Below, piece by piece: positions 5,226 to 58,965 of a DNA stretch of 64,000 nt. Location: contig CAIRCU010000032.1 in assembly GCA_903877165.1 (NCBI GenBank), positions 16,747 to 80,746 on the forward strand, written 5' to 3'. The translations under genes were made by a program, and so were the position numbers. The notes beneath the pieces were generated by a model, which searched no databases, had not been told where the DNA came from, and saw only the letters and a list, made by a program, of their open reading frames with translations. How positions within the stretch are numbered: the stretch's first letter is position 1; every line of letters starts with the position of its first letter. This DNA comes from Methanobacteriota archaeon (GTDB lineage: Archaea; Thermoplasmatota; E2; DHVEG-1).

Positions 5226-5309
5226 AGGAGAAAATCGATAGAACCCACTTTTTACCCTATTAACCGAAATCCCTCCTATAACGGAGAATGGGCCCGTTGA
5301 GATTTGAAC
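5226..5309. repeat. imperfect direct repeat copy 2 (overlaps the 3' end and downstream flank of tRNA-Pro)
   Basis: See 3123..3210. Shared segment aggagaaaatcgatagaacccactttttaccctattaaccgaaatccct...gagaatgggcccgttgagatttgaac. Confidence 0.5.
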
Positions 5310-5361
5310 TCAAGTCACTTGCACCCCAAGCAAGAAGGATACCAAGCTACCCCACGGGCCC
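5289..5361 (-). tRNA. tRNA-Pro (anticodon GGG)
   Basis: Reverse complement GGGCCCGTGGGGTAGCTTGGTATCCTTCTTGCTTGGGGTGCAAGTGACTTGAGTTCAAATCTCAACGGGCCCA. 7-bp acceptor stem, anticodon stem CTTGC/GCAAG with loop TTGGGGT (U33, G37), T-loop TTCAAAT, no encoded CCA. Confidence 0.85.
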
Positions 5362-5435
5362 AGGGGATACCGGGTGCTAAGGGTGCATGCTGACAAGCCT
5401 TAATATAGTTTATTCGATTCAACTCCCCTGGTACC

Positions 5436-17063: not shown

Positions 17064-17498
17064 TTATTTTTTTGGTGATACCGTGACTGTCCCGGTGTCT
17101 GCATCCAGTGTGACAGTGTCTCCGTTGTGGATCTGGTCGATGTCGATTTTATCGACGCAGGGGATGCCGGCGAGGATGACGCCTGTTGCGACAATCGTCT
17201 CGGTCTCCTTGTTGATGATGCCTTTGGGGCCGACCTTGTTCTTCGCCAGGCCGTAGATGACATAGGAGCCGACGGTGGAGCCTTTGCCGCAGGGGAAGAC
17301 GAGGATGGTGTCTTTGACGCTTTTTCCTTCGAGCGGATGGCCTTTTTCGATGACGATGCCGGTCTTGATGTTGACGCTGCCGTAGAAGCCGAGCGGTTCT
17401 TTGGAGACCAAGGCTGTGCCAGTGGCTTTCCCCGGGGAGATGATGCGTCCTTTCATCATGAGATTGCCTCCACGAGTGCGTCGAGGTTCGCGAAACAC
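17064..17498 (-). CDS. aconitase-X family small subunit (DUF126), putative phosphomevalonate dehydratase small subunit
   Basis: ~130-aa Gly-rich swivel-domain protein directly downstream of the AcnX large subunit. Probable true start is the internal MMKG (about 17459) abutting the upstream stop. Confidence 0.65.
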   Translation of the reverse strand: MFREPRRTRGGNLMMKGRIISPGKATGTALVSKEPLGFYGSVNIKTGIVIEKGHPLEGKSVKDTILVFPCGKGSTVGSYVIYGLAKNKVGPKGIINKETETIVATGVILAGIPCVDKIDIDQIHNGDTVTLDADTGTVTVSPKK

Positions 17499-18640
17499 AC
17501 GCTTTGTTTGCAGAAGCCGGGGAGGTAGTTGGCTGCTTTGCCGGAGGTGACCCCGGTAGTCTTGAAGCCCATATCTTCTATTGGTGAGACGACCATGCAG
17601 GTGTCAGCGACGATGTGGCCACCAGCTTTTTCTATGGTCTGGGTGTAGCCCATGCGGTCCGCTGCCTCTTTCATCATGCGTGAGGTGCAGACCCAGAGGG
17701 GTTTGCGCAGATGCTTTCCTTGGACTTTAGCGGCGACCGACCCTATTTCACGCAGTGAGGCATGCGGGCAGCCGAGGATGACGATGTCCGGTTCCTTGCC
17801 GGTGTTGAGCTTTGCGTAGGCGTCTTGGAGGTCTTTTTTGGTGACCGTGATGGTCTCCAGGTTGTCTTTCTTGACGAGGTCTGCTTCTGGGGTGAGGCCT
17901 TCGACGTGGTAGAGGGCGACGGCTCCTGAGGCCGCCATGGCCGCTCCGAGTGCCTTGAGCTGGTCGGTGTCCGCGTTCTTGATGCCGGTGAAATAGGGGA
18001 TCTTGTTCTTGATCTGTTTTCCGAGCGTGTAGCCGAGGGCGCCGAAGTCGGAGTCGAAGACGAGGTCTGTTTCGACGTTGATCTTGATGGAGGGTTGGCG
18101 TTCTTCCCAGCGGTGGAAGCCGTAGTTTGGGGTCTTGCCGCAGATGGCGGCGGCAAGCGCGGAGGGCCCTCCTTCACGGTTGGTGCGTGCGCCGATGACT
18201 GAGTTGGAAAATGAAATAGCCGAGGATTCTGACCAGGCGATGTGCTCGCGGAACCTGGGGAGGTTGCCGGCGAGGTACGGGGTACAGGTGGCGGTAATGA
18301 CGATGCCCATCTGTTTGAAGGCGTTCATGATGCGCATCTGGTTCTTTGCGAAAGCCTCGGGGAAGCCGAGTTTTTTCCAGTCTTCGAGGTCCATGCCTGC
18401 GGGGTTGAGGAAGGTGAGGACCTTGACTTTGGCTCCTTGTGCGGCGATGTCTTCGAGGAAGGTGGTGCCTGGTTCTTCGATGGATTTGTAGGAGACGCCG
18501 GCGACTTGGACAGATCCTACGGGGATCATCTTGTCTGCGCCGTAGATCTCGCCGAGGCGGACGAGGAGGCGGAACATGCGTTCGGCGACGGGGCCTGCTT
18601 CGCCGTTGAGGATTCCTTCTTCTTCTGTTGTTAAATACAT
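17456..18640 (-). CDS. aconitase-X family large subunit (DUF521), putative mevalonate-5-phosphate dehydratase large subunit
   Basis: 394 aa matching the AcnX/DUF521 architecture (GSVQVAGVSY...CTPYL...GCPHASL...). Paired with a DUF126 small subunit. Mevalonate kinase and a UbiD-like gene lie nearby. Confidence 0.7.
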   Translation of the reverse strand: MYLTTEEEGILNGEAGPVAERMFRLLVRLGEIYGADKMIPVGSVQVAGVSYKSIEEPGTTFLEDIAAQGAKVKVLTFLNPAGMDLEDWKKLGFPEAFAKNQMRIMNAFKQMGIVITATCTPYLAGNLPRFREHIAWSESSAISFSNSVIGARTNREGGPSALAAAICGKTPNYGFHRWEERQPSIKINVETDLVFDSDFGALGYTLGKQIKNKIPYFTGIKNADTDQLKALGAAMAASGAVALYHVEGLTPEADLVKKDNLETITVTKKDLQDAYAKLNTGKEPDIVILGCPHASLREIGSVAAKVQGKHLRKPLWVCTSRMMKEAADRMGYTQTIEKAGGHIVADTCMVVSPIEDMGFKTTGVTSGKAANYLPGFCKQSVCFANLDALVEAIS

Positions 18641-19121
18641 AGAACGTCGATCCTTCAGTGGGGTTGGGTATAGGCTCAGGTTATTTGAGGATTTTGGACG
18701 GTGGCATCAGCCGTCTCTTAAAAAAAATCACTTGTGTTTTTTGTTCCGAAAGACCTTGCATCATCCATCGAAACATTCATTAACCATAATGAATATCATT
18801 GTCTGTTCTCTATGAGGCCATCGGATACCCGAATACCTAGGTGGAAGGCCTAAACCCGGCCCGTGCATTCGCCCCCATAGATGAGACACGAATTCTCCTT
18901 GGTTTTCCTTTGATTTGACTGTCTGCGTCTTCGGTGTAATTTACTTCTGTGGACATTGTACTTCTGAGGGGACCAAAGAGATAAGATGGAGGAAAGAAAA
19001 TGGAAGACAAATCCCGACACCAATTCGAGCACGACGCTCGAAACGCAAGAGAAGACACCCTAGGTGGTAATAGAAAGAAATATAACCATCGTTCGGCGCT
19101 CCTACATCGGAGAGGAACCCT

Positions 19122-19544
19122 ATGAACAAGACGGCAATGGCAGGAATCAGCCTGGTCCTAGTTGTCCTCCTCATCAGTATCCCCCTCATCTCGGCTGTTA
19201 CAGTGAGTACAGCAACCTCTATTCCTATCACCCTCGGCGAGAAGGGCGCCTTGCGTGAACTTCTACGTCACCGGTTTTTTCTGCTCACTGGACTCATCAT
19301 GTTCAAAATCGATCATCAGGCTGTCGACAAGCCGTTTGTCCTCTGGTTTCATCCCTTGTTGGCATTCAGGATTGGCGGCGGGCCGATCTATCATCGGCAC
19401 TTCCTTGGCCCAGGCAACCTCTGGTACATCGATGCCTCGAGATTCGCAGGCTACGGCATCATCATTCCCCCAAAGCTACTCTTCTCGCACGGCACTGATG
19501 AATATTGGCTAGGGATCGGCAGCATCCTCTTCACCGGAAGCTGA
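19122..19544 (+). CDS. hypothetical small membrane/secreted protein
   Basis: N-terminal hydrophobic signal-like segment. No recognisable domain. Confidence 0.3.
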   Translation: MNKTAMAGISLVLVVLLISIPLISAVTVSTATSIPITLGEKGALRELLRHRFFLLTGLIMFKIDHQAVDKPFVLWFHPLLAFRIGGGPIYHRHFLGPGNLWYIDASRFAGYGIIIPPKLLFSHGTDEYWLGIGSILFTGS

Positions 19545-19596
19545 CCACCTTTCTCTTTCTTTTTTTCTATTACAATCCTTTTAACCAAAGGTACTT

Positions 19597-20796
19597 ATGG
19601 ATTCACTGAATCATAGTGTCGCGCTGACCATGAAACTCAAACAACAACCCACTGATTTCATCGTCGAAGAACTACCATCCAAAACCTGGTCCCAGGACAA
19701 ACAAGCCCACGCCGTCTACCGCATGGAAAAACAAGACGTCGACACCTTCGACGCCATCCGGACCATCGCCAGAAGGCTACGCCTCCCGCAAGCAGAAATC
19801 GGGTACGCCGGCCTCAAGGACAAACACGCCAAAAGCACCCAATACATCACCCTGCCGGCCCACTGCAACATTGACACCATGCACCTCCCCGGCATCACCC
19901 TGCGGCGTGTCGGCTACCTGCCCCAGAAGATACAGATCGGCGACCTTCAAGCTAACTCTTTCACCATCGTCATCCGCGACCTCCGAGCCACCGACCTCCA
20001 ACCACTCCCACGCAGGCTTGACAGCATCCGCTCCGACGGCATCCCCAACTACTTTGACAGCCAGCGCTTCGGCAGCGTCATCGACGGCGTCTTCATCGCC
20101 AAACTCCTCATCCAAGGCAGAGACGAAGCCGCGGTCAAACAAGTCCTCACCGCGTACCAGAAGTCAGAGCCGAAAGCCGTCAAAGACGAGAAACGCCGCA
20201 TCGCCATCCATTGGAACCAGCTCGACACACTCAAGGTCACCGACCGGATCCTCTCCTACATCATCACCGAATACACCACCACACACAGTTGGCAGAAGGC
20301 GTACCTCAGAATCCCAGGGCACCTCCGAGAGATCCACGCGAACGCGTACCAAAGCTACCTCTGGAACGAGACCCTCAAGACACTCCTCCGAGCAACCGTC
20401 GACACCAAAAGACTCCTCCCCGTGGACTACGCCGCAGGAACCCTACTCTTCCCCATAGACCTCACCATACAAGAAAAACAAGTCCTCCCTCAGATCCTGT
20501 ACACCCCAAGCGAGACCGCACTCTACTCCGGCTTGGAGCTCACCGCGTTTAAAAAAACCCTCGCCTCAGAAGGCATATCCCAATCGGACCTCGCCAGGCT
20601 TGCAGCCTTCGATCAGTACCTCAAGGCACGACCACGAGACACCATCATCCTTCCAACAAACCTGACATCGTCTGAGCCGCAGCCAGACGACCTCAACACC
20701 ACGCCCCACGAGCAGCGCTGGAAACTCCAGATCTCCTTCACTCTCCCCAAAGGAAGCTACGCAACCATCGTCACCAAACGTCTCTTCGGACACTAA
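19597..20796 (+). CDS. truD: tRNA pseudouridine synthase TruD/Pus7 family
   Basis: QPTDFIVEE N-terminal motif and catalytic GYAGLKDKHAKSTQ (GxKD) motif. Confidence 0.75.
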   Translation: MDSLNHSVALTMKLKQQPTDFIVEELPSKTWSQDKQAHAVYRMEKQDVDTFDAIRTIARRLRLPQAEIGYAGLKDKHAKSTQYITLPAHCNIDTMHLPGITLRRVGYLPQKIQIGDLQANSFTIVIRDLRATDLQPLPRRLDSIRSDGIPNYFDSQRFGSVIDGVFIAKLLIQGRDEAAVKQVLTAYQKSEPKAVKDEKRRIAIHWNQLDTLKVTDRILSYIITEYTTTHSWQKAYLRIPGHLREIHANAYQSYLWNETLKTLLRATVDTKRLLPVDYAAGTLLFPIDLTIQEKQVLPQILYTPSETALYSGLELTAFKKTLASEGISQSDLARLAAFDQYLKARPRDTIILPTNLTSSEPQPDDLNTTPHEQRWKLQISFTLPKGSYATIVTKRLFGH

Positions 20797-20803
20797 TATA
20801 GAT

Positions 20804-21121
20804 TTAGAGATCAGGAATCAAAGCCCGACAGTTCTGCACCAGGAACTCGATCTCCTCTTTCGATGCGTTATCAACATGGATTCCGCCCACGGCGACGGTT
20901 GTCTGACGATACTTCTCACAGGCTGCCTGCGCGATTATCGTCAACACCACCGTATCGTAATGACCCGCAAGCGACAGCACCTGCGATTTCTTCCCGGGCT
21001 CGCACACGACAGCGCCACCCACGTGCGGACGCTCACCACCACTAAGAATATAGAGCAGGTCCGAGCCGATAGATTGCTTCTTCACCCAGACCCGGTACTT
21101 CCCCTTACCTGAGGTAATCAT
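20804..21121 (-). CDS. hypothetical protein (105 aa) co-oriented with and overlapping the end of the UbiD-like gene
   Basis: ORF with native codon usage. Start overlaps the stop of 21105..22415. No recognisable motif. Confidence 0.3.
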   Translation of the reverse strand: MITSGKGKYRVWVKKQSIGSDLLYILSGGERPHVGGAVVCEPGKKSQVLSLAGHYDTVVLTIIAQAACEKYRQTTVAVGGIHVDNASKEEIEFLVQNCRALIPDL

Positions 21122-22415
21122 CCAGCCTCACAGGCTTGTACCGCACGACTTCGTACTTGCTTTTATCAACGCCCGCGGGAATCGTCGCATCCACACCGAC
21201 CTTCGAGGTCAGCGTCTTCTTGCCCTCCTCGTGCTTCGCGGAAGGGTCAAGGGAACTCCCAGGCTGATCGGCCTTCACCACGAGGTCCTTGTCGCCTTGG
21301 AATCGGGTCGCTATAGCCCATTCCACTGCAGTCGGACTGTAAATATCCACATCTGCATCCAAGACCACCACGTGCTTCATGCTCTTATGGCCGATGAACG
21401 CCGCCTCGATAGCCTTCTTCCCATCATCAGGACTGCGTTTCTCGATCTGCACGATGCCATGCAGCCACGAGCCGCCACCAAGGGTGATCAACACGTTCTT
21501 ACAGGTAGCCACTTTGCTGACCTCGTCGTAGATCGTCGGCTCCTTGGGCATCCCCATGAGGTTCTTATGCTCAAGACGCCCGGGTATGAGCGCCTGGTAC
21601 ATCGGATCCTTGCGATGCGTGATGCAATCCACAACAAAGACTGGTTCTTTGCGTTCGAAATCCCGCGTCTCCGTCAGATCCAAAAACGGACCCTCAGAAC
21701 CGACTTCCTTGGTCAACCGGCCTTCGATGACGAACTCGGACTCCGCAGGCACCTCAAGGTCCTTAGTCACGCACTTCACCATGGTCATCGAATCAAGAGC
21801 ATTCGCAATAGAGAACTCATCCACACCGGAGGGAGGACTCAGTGATGCAGCGACCATGACCGGCACAGAGCTCCCGATGCAGACCGCAAACTCCGTGTCC
21901 CCCGTGTTCTTGTCGTAGGTCGTGCGCGTCTGCCGGCCCTTGATCAACCGCGCCGTGAAACGGTCCTTACCTCGTTTCATGAGACGATGGTACGAGGCGT
22001 TCCGCCCGGTCTGCGGATCCTTCACAGTCGAGACGGTCGCAGTCGCATAGTATCCACCATCACCAGGTAAATGGAACAACAACGGCAGGTCGTCGAGGTC
22101 CGGGGTCTTCACCACAACCTCCTGGCACGGCGCCTTCGTTCCCACCGCTGGGAGCTTCGGATGCCGCAGCGCGCTCACCAGCAGCGGCAGCAGCTCTTCT
22201 TTCTTGACGCCGAACGCCTCAGCGATGATGTCACGGTTCGATGTGATCCCACCGAACACCGGGTACTTCGATCCAGCGACACGGTCGAAGATCACCGGCT
22301 GCTCACCAAGGGTGTTCATGATGTTGGCGATCTCGTACTTCGTGGAGACCTCCTTTTTGATTCGGACGAGTTTGCCCTCGCGCTCAAGCTGCGCTAGGAA
22401 CGGCCGCAGATGCAT
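21105..22415 (-). CDS. UbiD-family decarboxylase, candidate trans-anhydromevalonate-5-phosphate decarboxylase
   Basis: UbiD-like layout with SEGPFLDLTE segment. Start overlaps the mevalonate kinase stop. AcnX dehydratase pair lies 3 kb away. Confidence 0.6.
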   Translation of the reverse strand: MHLRPFLAQLEREGKLVRIKKEVSTKYEIANIMNTLGEQPVIFDRVAGSKYPVFGGITSNRDIIAEAFGVKKEELLPLLVSALRHPKLPAVGTKAPCQEVVVKTPDLDDLPLLFHLPGDGGYYATATVSTVKDPQTGRNASYHRLMKRGKDRFTARLIKGRQTRTTYDKNTGDTEFAVCIGSSVPVMVAASLSPPSGVDEFSIANALDSMTMVKCVTKDLEVPAESEFVIEGRLTKEVGSEGPFLDLTETRDFERKEPVFVVDCITHRKDPMYQALIPGRLEHKNLMGMPKEPTIYDEVSKVATCKNVLITLGGGSWLHGIVQIEKRSPDDGKKAIEAAFIGHKSMKHVVVLDADVDIYSPTAVEWAIATRFQGDKDLVVKADQPGSSLDPSAKHEEGKKTLTSKVGVDATIPAGVDKSKYEVVRYKPVRLDDYLR

Positions 22416-23374
22416 TATTCCACCTCAGCATGGGACATCCCGATGATCGTCTTGATCGTCTGGAAGCCCTCTTTTTCTATTGCGTTGGCGACGCGCTCCT
22501 GCACCGACTTCCCAGGGGTCAAGGCGATAATGTTACCACCGAGGCCACCGCCGGTGAGCTTCGCACCCAGCGCCCCGCACTTCACCGCGACCTGCACCAA
22601 GAAATCCAGTTCTCGGCTGCTCACCTCGATCTGCTGCAGGAGCCGATGGTTCTCGTTCATGAGCTTCCCGACCTCCTTATAATCGCCCTCCTCAAGCGCC
22701 CGGCGCGCGAGGTACGTAATGTTCTCCGCACGGCCGAAGATCTCGCCATATTTCTTCGCGTTCTTCTCCTTGCGGTCCTTCACGCCTGCGACCGCGGCCT
22801 GAGTGTTGGCGACCTTGCCGGTGTTCCCTATAACGATCTCCACCGGGGTGGATACCGAGATCTTCTCGATGACGTTCGGCTCACCTTTCTGGAACCAGAT
22901 CAAACCACCGAAGGTGGATGCGGTGTTATCGACACCGGAGGGCGTCCCATGGTAGCCTTTCTCACCTTCAAATGCGATATCGTTAATCTCCTCGTCGGAG
23001 AGCTTCATATTATAATACTCTGAGAGCGCACGGGCGACGGCTACGCAGGAGGCAGCGCTCGCACCGATGCCGCTGGAGGCCACCAGGTTGCCATCCAGGA
23101 TGATCTTAATGCCCTTGCTGGAGAGGTCGATGTTCATCTTCCGCAACATCTTGTTCAGCGAGTCGATCTGCTGGTCTTTCTTATCCTCCTTGTACTTCGG
23201 GGTCGCCGGGCGCAGGTCCTCCAGCTGGTACTGCGGTTTAGGGGAGGGCTCGATACGCGCCCTGGTGTACTGGCCGATAGCCGAGACGATCGAGGGAATG
23301 CCGTAGACGACGAAATGCTCGTTGAACAGAATAGCCTTTCCAAAGCCGATGCCTTGTCCTTTCATTCGAATCAC
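22415..23374 (-). CDS. mvk: mevalonate kinase (GHMP kinase)
   Basis: GKAILFNEHFVVYG N-terminal mevalonate-kinase motif. GHMP ATP-binding loop SSGIGASAAS. C-terminal KLTGGGLGG. Confidence 0.75.
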   Translation of the reverse strand: MIRMKGQGIGFGKAILFNEHFVVYGIPSIVSAIGQYTRARIEPSPKPQYQLEDLRPATPKYKEDKKDQQIDSLNKMLRKMNIDLSSKGIKIILDGNLVASSGIGASAASCVAVARALSEYYNMKLSDEEINDIAFEGEKGYHGTPSGVDNTASTFGGLIWFQKGEPNVIEKISVSTPVEIVIGNTGKVANTQAAVAGVKDRKEKNAKKYGEIFGRAENITYLARRALEEGDYKEVGKLMNENHRLLQQIEVSSRELDFLVQVAVKCGALGAKLTGGGLGGNIIALTPGKSVQERVANAIEKEGFQTIKTIIGMSHAEVE

Positions 23375-23423: not shown

Positions 23424-23960
23424 TTATGGGCCGGGACTCGGGTTTTCTCCTAGGCAGAGAGTACAATACTGTCGCATGGAGCAGTGACGGCAGCGGTGCG
23501 GGTCGTCATGGTTCAACGTCACCTTCCCTGTCCGCAACACCCGGCGCATCCGTTCCATGGATAATTCCAGGGAGTACCGCAGGCCAGGGTCGAACGGGAT
23601 CCTGGTCGGCTCCCGGTTGAGGACGAGGATGCCGTACGGGACGAACTCACCCGACGTCTCTTCGAGGAGCTGGCAGTAGGCGGCCAGCTGCAGGACATGG
23701 CTGGGCTGCGGATGCGGGTGATGGCCGCTCTTGACTTCCACGGGGACGAGGTGGCCGTCCTGACGCAGGATGTAGTCGGGTTTGCCTGCGAGCTGCAGGC
23801 GCGGCGAGAACAAGGGCTCGGCTGGGACCGTGAGGTCCGAGTAGAGGAGGGTGCCGGTGGGGATGCCCTCGTGGTCTTTCGTGGCTTGGAGGCGGCGGCG
23901 CAGGAGGCGGGCATAAACAAGGATGGTGAGACCGAGGACAACAAGCACGAGGGGCAACAA
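23424..23960 (-). CDS. Cas4-like PD-(D/E)XK nuclease, C-terminal part (motifs II, III, QxxxY and CX2CX5C cluster), begins with a TM helix
   Basis: GKPDYIL (motif II), VPVEVKSG (ExK), QLAAYCQLL (QxxxY), CRHCSMRQYC. TTG start in the track. Immediately follows 23966..24301 in a different frame. Confidence 0.55.
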   Translation of the reverse strand: MLPLVLVVLGLTILVYARLLRRRLQATKDHEGIPTGTLLYSDLTVPAEPLFSPRLQLAGKPDYILRQDGHLVPVEVKSGHHPHPQPSHVLQLAAYCQLLEETSGEFVPYGILVLNREPTRIPFDPGLRYSLELSMERMRRVLRTGKVTLNHDDPHRCRHCSMRQYCTLCLGENPSPGP

Positions 23961-23965
23961 TAAAT

Positions 23966-24301
23966 CTATAGGATCACCCCCAAAAGGAATATAAGGAGGG
24001 CGAGGAGCAGGATGAGCAGGCCGGCCGCAACCATTCGTGAGGCGCGGTGCTCATGGCTTTGGACGCGGTCGAGGGTCCCGCCGAGCTCATGATGCACCTG
24101 GGTCCCGTGCTCCAGAGCCGGGGAATCGGGTACGTGGCCGCAGCGCTGCAGGTACCAGGCGTTCGCACAATAGGTGTACTGGCCGATTTCGGAGGCGCTG
24201 AGGACCGGTGAAGTCCGTTGCGGGCGGGTTCCCATCAAGGATAGTGTAACGAGATGAGTGTATTTAATCCGGGGTTGGGGGTCAGCGAAAGTAAAAACCA
24301 T
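23966..24301 (-). CDS. Cas4-like nuclease, N-terminal part (Cys motif and motif I), ends with a TM helix
   Basis: SASEIGQYTYCANAWYLQRCG and GTQVHHELGG match the Cas4/DUF83 N-terminus. C-terminal tail is MVAAGLLILLLALLIFLLGVIL. Confidence 0.5.
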   Translation of the reverse strand: MVFTFADPQPRIKYTHLVTLSLMGTRPQRTSPVLSASEIGQYTYCANAWYLQRCGHVPDSPALEHGTQVHHELGGTLDRVQSHEHRASRMVAAGLLILLLALLIFLLGVIL

Positions 24302-24385: not shown

Positions 24386-26374
24386 ATGTCTAACGCAAGA
24401 ACCAAACTGCAAGCCGTCCTTTTCGTCGGCCTGCTGGTATGCGCAAGCCTCGCACTCCTGTTGACTTTCACCTCGGTGCCCTCAGCCGGGAAGTACACCT
24501 ACGCCCTGAACAGCTTCAAATCCTATGACGACCTCCTGGCGTTCTTGCGGCAGCGGGCGAGCACTGCAGGCGACCGCGAAGCCCTTTACACAAGTAAGAA
24601 CACCCTTGATGGCGCGGCGACCGGGAACGTCGCAGTGCCGCAGAGCACTGCAACATCGTCTCCGAGTCACTCCTCGACTAACGTCCAGGTCGCGGGCGTC
24701 GACGAACCCGACACCGTGAAGACTGACGGGACCTATATCTACACGCTTTCGAACAACACGATCTTCATCCTGCAAGCCTACCCCGCCACCGACGCAGCGA
24801 TCGTCGGCCGGATCACCCTGGATGAGAACCACTCCGCGCAGTCGTTCTTCGTCAACGGCGACCGGCTCATCGTCTTCTGCTCCGGCGGCTTCTACTACCC
24901 GGTCCTCTACGATGGAGTCATGAAGACCACCGAATCGCTCAACAGACCCTGGTACGGCAACAGCGGTGAGATGTCGATCCTTGTCTACGACCTCGGCGAC
25001 CGCGCCAGCCCTTCACTATCCAAAGAAGTGAAGATGGATGGGTACTTCTCCGATGCCCGCATGATCGGCTCCTACGTCTACGTCGTCTCCACGACCCCGA
25101 CATACATGATCTACAGCGAGCAGAACGGCAACGAGACCCTCCGAGTCCCCACGATCACCATCGACGGCCAAAGCCAGAACATCACCCCAAACGACATCTA
25201 TTACGTGGACGTCCCTGAGCTAGCAGACTCCATGACCCATGTCCTCAGCCTGAACCTCGACACAAGCGAAGTCAACGATAAAAGCTTCATGCTCGGCAGC
25301 TCCCAGACCATGTACGTCTCCCAGAACAACATCTACCTGGCGACCAGCCACTGGCCCGTCGTCCCCCTGGCCGTAGACAACACCGCCAGCTCCTCGGACA
25401 CCGAGACCACGGTCTTGCACAAGATCGCGATCAACGCCAGCTCCATCGACTATGTCGCCCAGGGCGAAGTCCCAGGCCACATCCTCAACCAGTTCGCGAT
25501 GGACGAGTACAACGGCTACTTCCGTATTGCAACTACTGAAGGCTACTACAACGGCGACACCTACCAGACCACCAACAACGTCTACATCCTCGACGCCAAC
25601 CTCAAAGAAGTCTCCTCACTCAAGAACATCGCCCCCGGCGAATCCATCTACGCAGTCCGGTTCCTCGGCGATCGCGCTTACCTCGTCACCTTCGTCGAAA
25701 TCGACCCGCTCTTTGCCTTGGACCTCTCGGACCCCCAAAACCCCCAGATCCTCGGCGAACTGAAGATCCCCGGGTACTCCACCTACCTGCACCCCTATGA
25801 CGAGACCCACATCATCGGCATCGGCCGCGACGTCAACCGCAGCATCGACGCGGACAAGATCCACACCCCAGGCGCCGTCTACTACACCGCAGTCCAGGGC
25901 CTCAAGCTCGCGCTCTTCGACGTCTCCGACATCACCAACCCCGTGGAAGAAGCCTCGGTCACCATCGGCGACCGCGGCACGGACAGCCCCGCTCTCTACG
26001 ACCACCATGCCTTCCTCTTCGACCGCGAGAAGAACCTGCTCGTCATCCCCGTAAGCCTCTACGAGATCCCGCAGAAGACCCTCAGCACCCTCAACGACAG
26101 CAACGCCACCGAACTCCTCCCGGACTGGGGGCAGTTCACCTTCCAGGGCGCGTACGTCTACCACCTGACCATAGAGAACGGTTTCCAGCTCCAAGGACGG
26201 ATCACCCACCAGGACGACACCCAGCCCACCAACGACTGGTACTGGGGCTACAGCAACACGGACATCACCAGGTCGCTGTACATCGGCAACATCCTGTACA
26301 CCGTCTCCCAAAGCAAGGTCAAGGCCAACAGCCTCGACGACCTGCAGGAGCTCGCCAGCATCAGGCTCGCCTAA
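24386..26374 (+). CDS. secreted beta-propeller domain protein (Beta_propel/PF09826-like)
   Basis: Signal/TM at N-terminus. VKTDGTYIYTL early motif. IYAVRFLGDRAYLVTFVEIDPLFALDLSDPQNPQILGELKIPGYSTYLHPYDETHIIGIG segment characteristic of that family. Confidence 0.5.
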   Translation: MSNARTKLQAVLFVGLLVCASLALLLTFTSVPSAGKYTYALNSFKSYDDLLAFLRQRASTAGDREALYTSKNTLDGAATGNVAVPQSTATSSPSHSSTNVQVAGVDEPDTVKTDGTYIYTLSNNTIFILQAYPATDAAIVGRITLDENHSAQSFFVNGDRLIVFCSGGFYYPVLYDGVMKTTESLNRPWYGNSGEMSILVYDLGDRASPSLSKEVKMDGYFSDARMIGSYVYVVSTTPTYMIYSEQNGNETLRVPTITIDGQSQNITPNDIYYVDVPELADSMTHVLSLNLDTSEVNDKSFMLGSSQTMYVSQNNIYLATSHWPVVPLAVDNTASSSDTETTVLHKIAINASSIDYVAQGEVPGHILNQFAMDEYNGYFRIATTEGYYNGDTYQTTNNVYILDANLKEVSSLKNIAPGESIYAVRFLGDRAYLVTFVEIDPLFALDLSDPQNPQILGELKIPGYSTYLHPYDETHIIGIGRDVNRSIDADKIHTPGAVYYTAVQGLKLALFDVSDITNPVEEASVTIGDRGTDSPALYDHHAFLFDREKNLLVIPVSLYEIPQKTLSTLNDSNATELLPDWGQFTFQGAYVYHLTIENGFQLQGRITHQDDTQPTNDWYWGYSNTDITRSLYIGNILYTVSQSKVKANSLDDLQELASIRLA

Positions 26375-56176: not shown

Positions 56177-56250
56177 TGGGCCCGGCAGGATTTGAACCTG
56201 CGACCAACTGGTTATGAGCCAGTCGCTCCACCGGTCTAAGCTACGGGCCC
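56177..56250 (-). tRNA. tRNA with CAT anticodon (elongator Met or Ile2)
   Basis: Reverse complement GGGCCCGTAGCTTAGACCGGTGGAGCGACTGGCTCATAACCAGTTGGTCGCAGGTTCAAATCCTGCCGGGCCCA. Anticodon stem ACTGG/CCAGT with loop CTCATAA. T-stem GCAGG/CCTGC. G1:C72 excludes an archaeal initiator. Confidence 0.85.
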
Positions 56251-57093: not shown

Positions 57094-58965
57094 CTATCCA
57101 TCCCGATGGAACAAATACGCGAGCAGGGGGAACCGTTCGCACAGTCGTTCCCAAAAGCTTGGGATGCCCTTGCTAAGCGGGGTTGTCATGGAGATGCTGA
57201 TCGTTCCAAAGTCGCTATGATCCTCCGCGTTGACTACCTTGACCGTGCCACTGTAGCTGCCACCGGTAATGCTGAGAGCGGTTGGCGCCACAACCGTGAC
57301 CGTGATGGTCTTAGTGCCGTCCGCAGGTTTGAGGTTGTCACCGCTCGAGGGTGAAAACGACCAGGTGCCCCACGTCGGCCATTCCAGCACCTTCCAGTCC
57401 AGCCGTGAGTTCGCATCGCCGATGTTTTTAACCGTGAAGCTGCCTGTCACCGTCGCTCCTTTCTTCACATTCGTCCATATGAGGCTGCCGGCAGCGTCCA
57501 AGTTCGGGTTCAAGGTCTTCAACGAACAGATGACGACCGCGGCTTCTACAACCGTGTAGTTCGCGCTCACCGGGTACCCTTCGATGTACCAGGTGCAGTT
57601 AATGCCTGGGTCTGGTGAGCCGACGACGACGCTGTACTCATCATGCGAGACGTTCTTCGCATCGTTGTGATCCGTCGCCGCTGGTGTATTGAGGTTGAAG
57701 TCCGGGTCGGAGAATGCGATCTTCAGATCCTGTTGGTTGACTCCGGCGCAAGTGACGAAATGGCCCTCTCCCTTTTCAATCGTCGGGTTGTAGTACTCGG
57801 TTTTAAACGTCCAGTCGAAGAAGGTCGGTCCGGGGATTCCGTTCATCCAGCCCTGTCCTGGCGGATAGGGGTCCGCAGAGGATTGCACATAGAACCATTC
57901 GTAGTGGTACTGGTCAGGGGCGGGGACTTCCAGGACGTCGAAGTAGTACGTGGATCCAGCGACGAGGGGGACCGCGGGGAAGGGGAACTGTATCCAGGTG
58001 GGCACAGCGAGGTTCCCGGGGTTCAGGACCGAGGAAGCTATGGGTGCGGCTGGCGATGGTGCGTTGTAGAGGTTGATCTGAACATCGCACGGCGGCCCGT
58101 TGCTGACGAGGCAGACTTCGATGGCATCCAGCCGGTTGACGGACGGCACGAAGCTTTGGTAGTCCCACCAGGTCGTCGGCTGCAGATTATCATTACTGCT
58201 CATGACAGCCGGCATCATCTGGTCGATGAGTAAACTCCCTTGGCTGGAGGTGTAGTCGCTGAGCAGGAGGATGACGTCTTGACTGCTGGTGATGTTGGTG
58301 CAGATGTTGGAGAACGTCGGGTTCTGATAGGTGTGCTCCACGAACATCGTTGAGAGGCCGGCCGTGGCGAACCAGTTGGTGAGGCCTGTCTGCATATCGC
58401 TGACGTACGTGGTGCCTTTGGATGTCGTCTGCATTGAGTTGGCGAGTTTTTCGATGAGTAAGGGTGCGTTCGCTCTCGCATGGTCGTCGCCCGCGCCGTA
58501 ATCCTTGACGAGGTCGAACTCGTTCTGCCCGTCGCCCGCGGTGCCGTTGGGGTCCTCGAACTTGCTGTCGTACCACCACAGGCAGTTGGCGATTGCCGTG
58601 GGGCCGCAGTAGCACCATTTCGCGACGTCGTCCCCGGCGACGACGCTATCCAGATGGGCGTTGGGGCCTGGGGCGATGCAGTTCTCGGCGACGTTGAGGA
58701 CGTCGTCCCCGGCGACCACGGAATCAATGATCCCGTTGGGTCCGGCGGTGATTTTCTTCCAGGTGTCCTGTTTCTGGTCGAAGTCCGGCATCCCGCCGGG
58801 GGTGTGCGGCGCGTAATTTGGATACGGTGATTTCCAGTACCAAGCCGAGGTCGTGGCCGCGGGTGTTGGGCGTGAACTCATGGCGAGCGAGACTCCTGCG
58901 AACAGGAGGGTGCCGACCACGAGGAGACTAAAAGCTGCCTTTTTCTTGAGTGGGTATGATACCAT
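57094..58965 (-). CDS. secreted protein with putative C39-like papain-fold cysteine peptidase core
   Basis: Signal peptide. WCYCGPTAIANCLWWY resembles the C39/C39-like active-site Cys motif (xCGPaclamil.YY). Duplicated DSVVAGDDV segments. No TM at the C-terminus. Confidence 0.35.
   Translation of the reverse strand: MVSYPLKKKAAFSLLVVGTLLFAGVSLAMSSRPTPAATTSAWYWKSPYPNYAPHTPGGMPDFDQKQDTWKKITAGPNGIIDSVVAGDDVLNVAENCIAPGPNAHLDSVVAGDDVAKWCYCGPTAIANCLWWYDSKFEDPNGTAGDGQNEFDLVKDYGAGDDHARANAPLLIEKLANSMQTTSKGTTYVSDMQTGLTNWFATAGLSTMFVEHTYQNPTFSNICTNITSSQDVILLLSDYTSSQGSLLIDQMMPAVMSSNDNLQPTTWWDYQSFVPSVNRLDAIEVCLVSNGPPCDVQINLYNAPSPAAPIASSVLNPGNLAVPTWIQFPFPAVPLVAGSTYYFDVLEVPAPDQYHYEWFYVQSSADPYPPGQGWMNGIPGPTFFDWTFKTEYYNPTIEKGEGHFVTCAGVNQQDLKIAFSDPDFNLNTPAATDHNDAKNVSHDEYSVVVGSPDPGINCTWYIEGYPVSANYTVVEAAVVICSLKTLNPNLDAAGSLIWTNVKKGATVTGSFTVKNIGDANSRLDWKVLEWPTWGTWSFSPSSGDNLKPADGTKTITVTVVAPTALSITGGSYSGTVKVVNAEDHSDFGTISISMTTPLSKGIPSFWERLCERFPLLAYLFHRDG

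Follow-up and report, generated by a model that had tools for sequence, protein, structure and literature searches.

Cas4 proteins (PF01930, TIGR00372; structures 4IC1, 4R5Q, 8D3L and 7MI4) share an N-terminal cysteine-bearing helix, the nuclease motifs D, ExK and QxxxY, a C-terminal CX2CX5C motif and a common fold. Some are encoded away from cas loci: the solo-Cas4 genes stand alone, are vertically inherited in archaeal lineages and are monophyletic in many Chloroflexi (Hudaiberdiev et al. 2017, PMC5704561). The solo-Cas4 of M. mazei was produced and characterised as a fusion to SUMO (PMC12501428). Here we analyse two adjacent open reading frames (ORFs), ORF1 and ORF2, in a 64-kb stretch of DNA from an archaeon of the Thermoplasmatota (contig CAIRCU010000032.1, positions 16,747 to 80,746 of the forward strand; hereafter the window, in whose own numbering all its coordinates are given). 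The pair resembles solo-Cas4 in lying outside cas loci and in its vertical inheritance in archaeal lineages, and it shares with Cas4 all of the features listed above, but it consists of two polypeptides, its fold is broken by two transmembrane (TM) helices, and it is accompanied by no cas1, cas2 or CRISPR array. The M. mazei protein was such a fusion, whereas ours is a split, TM-anchored pair. We put at roughly 0.7 the probability that the locus is a naturally split, two-gene, membrane-inserted nuclease of the Cas4 family (PD-(D/E)XK, 4Fe-4S), the second gene of which is initiated from a Shine-Dalgarno (SD) sequence and coupled to termination of the first.

Several described systems resemble parts of this arrangement. 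Gene pairs with a -4 nucleotide (nt) overlap (ATGA) are coupled by termination-reinitiation, and such overlaps are over-represented among the genes for subunits of heteromeric complexes (Huber et al. 2023, PMC10666635). Our pair likewise has a 4-nt overlap, an SD sequence in the upstream gene and products that are likely subunits of one complex, but the overlapping start is ATA (as ATAG or ATAA) and not ATG, GTG or TTG. In S. aureus, infC, ccpN and cvfC1 have conserved AUA and AUU starts with an extended SD sequence and 10-30% of AUG activity (PMC13009471). The combination of a weak near-cognate start with an unusually long SD sequence, retained across species, recurs here; the S. aureus genes, however, are bacterial and not coupled to an upstream stop, whereas our case is archaeal and predicted from sequence. 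Finally, SNIPE is a GIY-YIG nuclease bound to the membrane; it cleaves phage DNA as this is being injected, and its tethering spares the cell's own DNA (PMC13190303). The likeness is one of analogy only, in that a TM segment (N-out/C-in) anchors a nuclease whose catalytic domain is cytoplasmic; SNIPE has an unrelated nuclease fold and is a defence gene, whereas the pair described here has conserved housekeeping synteny.

Two reading frames with one set of Cas4 motifs

Both ORFs lie on the minus strand. ORF1 (23966..24235) encodes 89 amino acids (aa) followed by a TAG stop (23968-23966), which supply the N-terminal part of the Cas4 fold and finish in a TM helix. The mechanical call (24301..23966, 111 aa) is over-extended: we place the real start at the ATG at 24235 because ORF1 of the nearest relatives is exactly 89 aa long and starts MGT(R/H), as do homologs of 88-93 aa in general. 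ORF2 (23424..23969, stop 23426-23424) contains the PD-(D/E)XK nuclease core and would be 181 aa long from an ATA codon or 178 aa from the TTG at 23960; counted from that TTG it is in the -1 frame relative to ORF1, after a 5-nt gap. The motifs of Cas4 are divided between the two. ORF1 carries the N-terminal Cas4 helix SASEIGQYTYC (24167..24199), whose Cys23 is the first cysteine of the [4Fe-4S] set, and the motif Y-x-Y/F-C is kept in every ORF1 homolog displayed. The RecB-type motifs D, (D/E)xK and QxxxY are all in ORF2, as GKPDY (23786-23772), VEVK (23741-23730) and QLAAY (23690-23676), followed by the CX2CX5C motif CRHCSMRQYC (23492-23463; C160/C163/C169). The D, E, K, Q and Y and the three cysteines of ORF2 are invariant in 20 homologs, so that all four cysteines of Cas4, one in ORF1 and three in ORF2, are conserved.

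Between these two parts lie two hydrophobic segments. TM1 (MVAAGLLILLLALLIFLLGVIL, 23969..24034; 22 aa, mean Kyte-Doolittle value 3.15) is the predicted C-terminal membrane anchor of ORF1, and TM2 (LLLPLVLVVLGLTILVYARLL, 23901..23963; 21 aa, mean 2.50) the predicted N-terminal anchor of ORF2. Basic residues stand at the cytoplasmic ends of both helices, HEHRASR preceding TM1 and RLLRRR following TM2, and the RRR directly after TM2 is consistent with the positive-inside rule. Only the last residues of ORF1 and the first of ORF2 make up the loop between the helices.

Joined end to end, the two translations score 82.9 bits against TIGR00372 cas4 (cutoff 65) and 55.4 bits against PF12705, which aligns in one stretch over residues 34-280; ORF2 alone scores 39.6 bits with the latter model. 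Scores with PF01930 were 40.1-42.9 bits (cutoff 22.7), the value for ORF2 alone being 40.1. Residues 12-259 of the joined sequence align to positions 5-158 of the 161 in the PADLOC Cas4 model PDLC01447, and a profile search of PDB sequences returned 8D3L and 4R5Q. A single-chain AlphaFold2 model of the joined ORFs (mean pLDDT 74, pTM 0.50) has an N-terminal helix, then two long antiparallel helices (residues 39-86 and 93-123) that hold TM1 and TM2, and an alpha/beta core. Its best Foldseek matches in the PDB (8d3l, 8d3q, 7mi4 and 4ic1; E 1e-4 to 4e-3) are the Cas4 proteins of type I-C and Geobacter Cas4-Cas1-Cas2 complexes and SSO0001, with MGME1, ACE1 and Dna2 next, and the predicted structure has the three-dimensional fold of Cas4. 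An earlier note on this DNA had recognised a Cas4-like protein, assigned its motifs to the two ORFs in the way given here and supposed that two hydrophobic helices would form a hairpin; the profile matches across both halves, the motif positions and the hydropathy values agree with it on each point. Its account of two ORFs in different frames, 5 nt apart and fusible by a 1-nt change, also holds. The C5 run that it noticed is present, at 23977-23981 of the plus strand and not at about 23976-23980 as it had stated.

The two-gene arrangement recurs in other species. A scan of one genome per species, with ORF1 homologs placed by tblastn, gave 80 loci (numbered with an L below) from Thermoplasmatota, Methanothrix and its relatives, Methanomassiliicoccus and Chloroflexota. 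An ORF1 homolog stands immediately 5' of the ORF2 homolog in 76 of the 80, about 65 of which have ORF2 in the -1 frame. With the hypothetical fused protein as query, nearly all matches were proteins of 150-201 aa that cover the ORF2 part. In the nearest relatives (70-88% identity) ORF1 has 89 aa and ORF2 179 aa, the overlaps are GTGA or ATGA, and the order of genes (beta-propeller gene, ORF1, ORF2, mevalonate kinase) is that of the window. The ratio of non-synonymous to synonymous substitution rates (dN/dS) against three relatives was 0.22-0.26 for ORF1 and 0.11-0.23 for ORF2; by this measure both ORFs are under purifying selection.

The Shine-Dalgarno sequence and ATA codon at the junction

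The junction reads CTT TTG GGG GTG ATC CTA TAG ATT TAT TGT TGC in the frame of ORF1 and TTT GGG GGT GAT CCT ATA GAT TTA TTG TTG CCC in that of ORF2. Inside the end of ORF1 it contains GGGGGTGATCC (23971..23981, minus strand), which includes the G5 run corresponding to C5 on the plus strand. In most relatives this site reads GAGGTGAT, the complement of the conserved 3' end of archaeal 16S rRNA, AUCACCUCCU (a general archaeal sequence, PMC7531240, and not this organism's own); the window's version, GGGGTGATCC, is complementary to the same 3' end with one G-U pair. The apparent homopolymer is therefore the 5' part of an SD sequence. The DNA pattern at Thermoplasmatota junctions is G-R-GGTGAT, three variable nucleotides and then ATAG or ATAA. 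G-R-GGTGAT is kept in about 36 of 43 of these junctions and ATA stands at SD + 3 nt in about 38 of the 43, the window and L040 among them; ATAG or ATAA is found in 33 of 41 Thermoplasmatota loci. Elsewhere in the loci the 8-nt SD sequence occurs at near chance frequency. In the window, ATAG (23966..23969, minus strand) combines the proposed ORF2 start ATA (23969-23967) with the ORF1 stop in a -4 overlap.

The codon at this start position varies. Among the 80 loci the overlaps of stop and start by 4 or 1 nt, as in coupled pairs, take the forms ATGA, GTGA, TTGA, CTGA, TGATG and TAATG besides ATAG, and the junctions of Chloroflexota and Methanothrix are mostly classical coupled overlaps (ATGA or TGATG); Chloroflexus islandicus is a cultured bearer of the canonical form. 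The canonical ATG, GTG or TTG that would be expected in such an overlap is replaced by ATA here and in those 38 or so Thermoplasmatota junctions. The same start position holds GTG in L001 and L086/87, ATG in L036 and L088/89, TTG in L030 and CTG in L091 and L092, and within the window's own sub-clade the codon may be ATA, CTG, GTG or ATG. L091 and L092 are the window's two closest relatives; they have a CTGA overlap (junction 1155-1175), and their first canonical start lies past TM2. Where the stop of ORF1 is TAG or TAA and overlaps, it is preceded by A in 33 of 33 cases, although the last codon of ORF1 varies (CTA, TTA, GTA, CGA or CCA). ATA stays at SD + 3 even in L022, L026 and L037, in which the ORF1 stop is displaced. 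In L037 (5985-6005) ORF1 extends 15 nt beyond the SD-ATA and ends in a T8 run (TTTTTTTTGA) that would itself be slippery.

Several lines of evidence point to this codon as the probable start. The spacing from GGTGA to the start is 4-8 nt in the window's own genes, and it is 4 nt for the ATA as against 13 nt for the TTG at 23958..23960, the nearest canonical alternative. Many species have their first canonical codon after the ATA within TM2. In L020, L039, L035 and L038 the first in-frame ATG, GTG or TTG is at codon 147, 147, 70 and 80, respectively, with none upstream; the motifs of ORF2 are intact in all four, and this first canonical codon lies past the catalytic residues, so that these ORF2 proteins cannot come from canonical initiation. 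Positional entropy shows T-rich second codon positions of low variability in the ORF1 frame upstream of the junction and in the ORF2 frame from two to three codons after the ATA; the switch of periodicity implies that TM2 is translated from essentially that point. From the SD spacing, the conservation of ATA and the four loci that lack a canonical start we infer SD-directed initiation at ATA, which in ORF2 is probably carried out by ribosomes that have terminated on ORF1. A scan of the window found no other SD + ATAG/ATAA junction lacking a canonical start, the one at 22418 being TAATG.

The earlier note had offered other explanations of the split. Homopolymers are error-prone in some technologies and a sequencing or assembly error at the run would account for the broken frame, but the exact ORF1 protein is found on 12 contigs from at least three studies, and the five of these with DNA available, which are independent assemblies, all read TTTTGGGGGTGATCCTATAG at the junction, although two sites elsewhere set them apart from the window (the only single-nucleotide differences, both synonymous third-position changes in ORF2); we give an error next to no credence. 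A pseudogene, in which a contiguous membrane Cas4 gene was knocked out by a 1-nt deletion, is very improbable. Contiguous homologs do occur, and adding one G at the run does restore a single frame (reading ...LIFLLGGDPIDLLLPLV..., whereas removing one G gives TGA), yet dozens of species from two domains share the split, the junction keeps its SD and start architecture, and neither the relaxed selection nor the lost residues of a pseudogene are seen, dN/dS being 0.11-0.26 over the two ORFs and every catalytic and cysteine residue being intact. The choice that the note had posed, in which a confirmed stop would mean a pseudogene, was thus too narrow, and a natural split gene is what these loci point to instead. 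The idea of slippage or a 1-nt accident at the homopolymer fails with the run itself, which is not conserved and is the 5' part of the SD sequence; transcriptional slippage is also disfavoured by the shortness of G5 and by the want of a homopolymer in most relatives. Read-through of the TAG (pyrrolysine) was rejected, as the ORF1 frame past it does not encode the nuclease.

Two readings would leave the genes intact and translate them otherwise. Internal SD sequences can stimulate frameshifting, as in prfB and dnaX, and a programmed frameshift (-1 at U UUG GGG G, or +2 at the stop) would yield one protein of about 270 aa with an internal TM hairpin. Read in the ORF1 frame, the window's CTT TTG GGG matches the pattern X XXY YYZ; upstream of it 27 codons of the ORF2 frame are open, and contiguous homologs exist. 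We nevertheless consider it improbable. Neither the heptamer nor the G run is kept in most relatives, which have GAGGTGAT in a different framing; ten loci (L003, L004, L017, L021, L023, L030, L031, L034, L035 and L038) have an ORF2-frame TGA right before GGTGAT, which excludes a -1 slip at that place and leaves four non-slippery codons; and the relatives with ATGA, GTGA or TGATG are ordinary coupled gene pairs. A -1 shift at the G run was rejected on the first two of these grounds, and a +2 hop from CUA-UAG onto AUA fails for last codons CGA and CCA and for the displaced stops of L026 and L037. Nor was a stimulatory or SD-masking hairpin found: the local RNA folds no more stably than shuffled sequence (z score -0.23) and RNAalifold gave 0 conserved pairs in 26 junctions. 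In the window (minus strand 23940-23981) the SD segment GGGGGUGAU can pair with GUUGCCCC 20 nt downstream, with ATA/TAG in the loop, a pairing that is neither significant nor conserved. The other reading deserves more weight, although we still think it unlikely: ORF2 would start at a canonical codon, the TTG at 23960 or the one after it, the ATA being an isoleucine-like relic, and the nuclease would remain a split, two-gene one. TTG TTG, three to four codons past the ATA, would preserve TM2, and several relatives have TTG, ATG or GTG two to five codons past theirs. The 13-nt spacing tells against it, as does the persistence of ATA at loci with a displaced ORF1 stop; no canonical codon is conserved near this place, and in at least seven species the first one is inside or far past TM2. 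SD-directed initiation at the ATA, coupled to ORF1 termination, is the reading that we carry forward.

Genomic surroundings and the wider family

The neighbourhood is not that of an adaptation Cas4, which would adjoin cas1/cas2 or a CRISPR array. In agreement with the earlier note, no CRISPR-like repeat array is present in the 64-kb window, and among its 54 long ORFs only ORF2 matches any Cas model. The neighbours are instead a beta-propeller protein, mevalonate kinase, UbiD and AcnX. Upstream and divergent from the nuclease pair is a gene with a complete PF09826 beta-propeller domain (24386-26374, plus strand; 662 aa, E 9e-167) with a signal-anchor-like N-terminus, found at the same position in 25 loci. 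Directly downstream of ORF2 is a mevalonate-pathway cluster (17459-23374, minus strand), which includes a GHMP mevalonate kinase (22415-23374), a UbiD-like decarboxylase (21108-22415; TAATG overlap with SD sequence GAGGTGGA), a PAC_bac-like small protein and AcnX (aconitase X, approximately 17459-18640), all on the minus strand. The genes conserved as neighbours across Thermoplasmatota are those for the PF09826 protein, mevalonate kinase, the UbiD-like decarboxylase, the PAC_bac-like protein, TruD and AcnX, and the synteny of nuclease pair and mevalonate cluster is kept in 15-20 species. In 14 Chloroflexota loci an SSB gene lies about 1 kb upstream. A defence island was considered and rejected, since PADLOC returns only Cas4 models for the nuclease and the neighbours are housekeeping genes; the context is an archaeal mevalonate-pathway neighbourhood.

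Ahead of ORF1, a candidate archaeal TATA box read from the sequence, ATTAAATA (24261..24268, minus strand), ends 25 nt before the ATG, a placement that would suit a possible leaderless or short-leader mRNA. Elsewhere, the window contains tRNA-Met(CAT) (56177-56250) and tRNA-Pro(GGG) (5288-5362), both on the minus strand, no rRNA gene, and several ORFs with methyltransferase domains. The long minus-strand ORF 57097-58965 contains, at 58624-58752, an imperfect direct repeat whose two 54-nt copies are 75 nt apart and 74% identical; it probably encodes a motif that recurs in the protein. PADLOC also matched five of the 54 long ORFs to 'mad2' (best E 2.5e-20) and one to 'dCTPase' (4.8e-41).

The earlier note had thought a membrane-inserted Cas4 unusual, a view that the analysis supports, and proposed looking for contiguous homologs with a TM insertion; such proteins were found. 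An exhaustive search of 1.84 billion representatives gave 1398 matches at E<=1e-3, and the following class counts refer to the best 150 of these and are approximate, being drawn from lengths and matched ranges. About 22, among them P0009, P0139-P0141 and P0147, are contiguous proteins of 243-318 aa with a single unbroken match over residues ~6-260, about 25 are of 320-400 aa, about 10 are of 495-596 aa, and about 85 match ORF2 only. The contiguous proteins have homologous N- and C-terminal nuclease parts and the same TM insertion point as the window's pair; unlike it they are single polypeptides, the window's version being cut in the hairpin loop. At this one point of the Cas4 fold two, four or about ten hydrophobic helices are inserted. 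The version in Methanomassiliicoccus (L066, 5455-6457, and L067, 4257-5256; protein P0153) is contiguous, with four inserted TM helices and about 327 aa, and the metagenomic homologs P0152 and P0160, of the 534-596 aa class, have about ten between the cysteine helix and the nuclease core. In the complete archaeal chromosome CP037968.1 (L094, 4576-5825) the gene for the contiguous 274-aa P0139 shares 4 nt with the RNase H gene upstream of it, and TrmO comes next, an order that hints at a link to nucleic-acid metabolism. Overall, the neighbours of the contiguous homologs (an RNase H gene, a recombinase and ribosomal protein genes) give no consistent functional clue. Membrane-inserted Cas4-like nucleases thus form a sizeable family in which the split form is a derived variant. 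No description of such a family was found in the literature searched, which did not cover all journals. A term search of the Cas4 phylogenomics paper (PMC5704561) returned no instance of 'transmembrane', 'split' or 'frameshift' and a single, unrelated 'membrane' in a gene-name legend.

Assembly, possible role and significance

We propose that the TM1-TM2 hairpin would assemble the two chains in the membrane into one Cas4 fold facing the cytoplasm. The hairpin would run in-out-in, leaving both nuclease parts on the cytoplasmic side, and by homology with Cas4 the Fe-S cluster would bridge the chains because ORF1 supplies its first cysteine and ORF2 the remaining three. In expression, the strong SD sequence would seat a ribosome 3 nt before a start that overlaps the ORF1 stop by 4 nt, so coupling translation of the two genes. 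A near-cognate ATA should initiate ORF2 inefficiently, probably mainly by ribosomes just done with ORF1, and one may speculate that the catalytic subunit is thereby kept from outnumbering its partner. In the window, the TTG three codons downstream may also start ORF2. Tethering may, if the analogy with SNIPE is a guide, limit the enzyme's substrates to DNA that is at the membrane or passing through it, although this is speculation; our best guess at its role is that of a housekeeping nuclease acting on DNA at the membrane. A bolder and more doubtful version joins all these elements, such that at least 35 Thermoplasmatota species would obligatorily start the catalytic subunit at AUA, using ORF1-terminating ribosomes that an SD duplex of 10 nt keeps in place. 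A single ribosome would then make both TM helices in succession, for insertion as a hairpin, the 4Fe-4S cluster would be shared, and the whole would serve as an unrecognised housekeeping nuclease on DNA at the membrane, for example DNA crossing it.

Several considerations weigh against the interpretation of the locus as a split nuclease started at ATA. A review of archaeal translation (PMC7531240) gives AUG, GUG and UUG as the only start codons and does not list AUA, and in the window the TTG three codons past the ATA would keep TM2 whole, so that ATA is not required here. The loci are related to one another, and counts such as 33/33 therefore overstate the number of independent events. Split expression and the use of ATA are predicted here from sequences and a modelled structure. 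The assembly of the chains and the sharing of the Fe-S cluster would follow from homology and from a single-chain AlphaFold2 model of moderate confidence (pTM 0.50). The function is a guess, to which the synteny with mevalonate genes adds no mechanistic clue.

A practical consequence concerns annotation. Gene callers label ORF1 'hypothetical' and ORF2 an N-terminally truncated or wrongly extended 'Cas4', and the membrane anchor and the partner subunit have therefore been missed in hundreds of genomes. The junctions also argue, by comparison of genomes, that initiation at AUA is conserved in archaea, and in the pair nature would have divided an Fe-S nuclease domain between two membrane-anchored chains. 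More broadly, the locus and its homologs define a family of Cas4-fold nucleases with two to about ten inserted TM helices, present in Thermoplasmatota, methanogens and Chloroflexota, and invite one to ask what Cas4 does away from CRISPR when it is tethered to a membrane.

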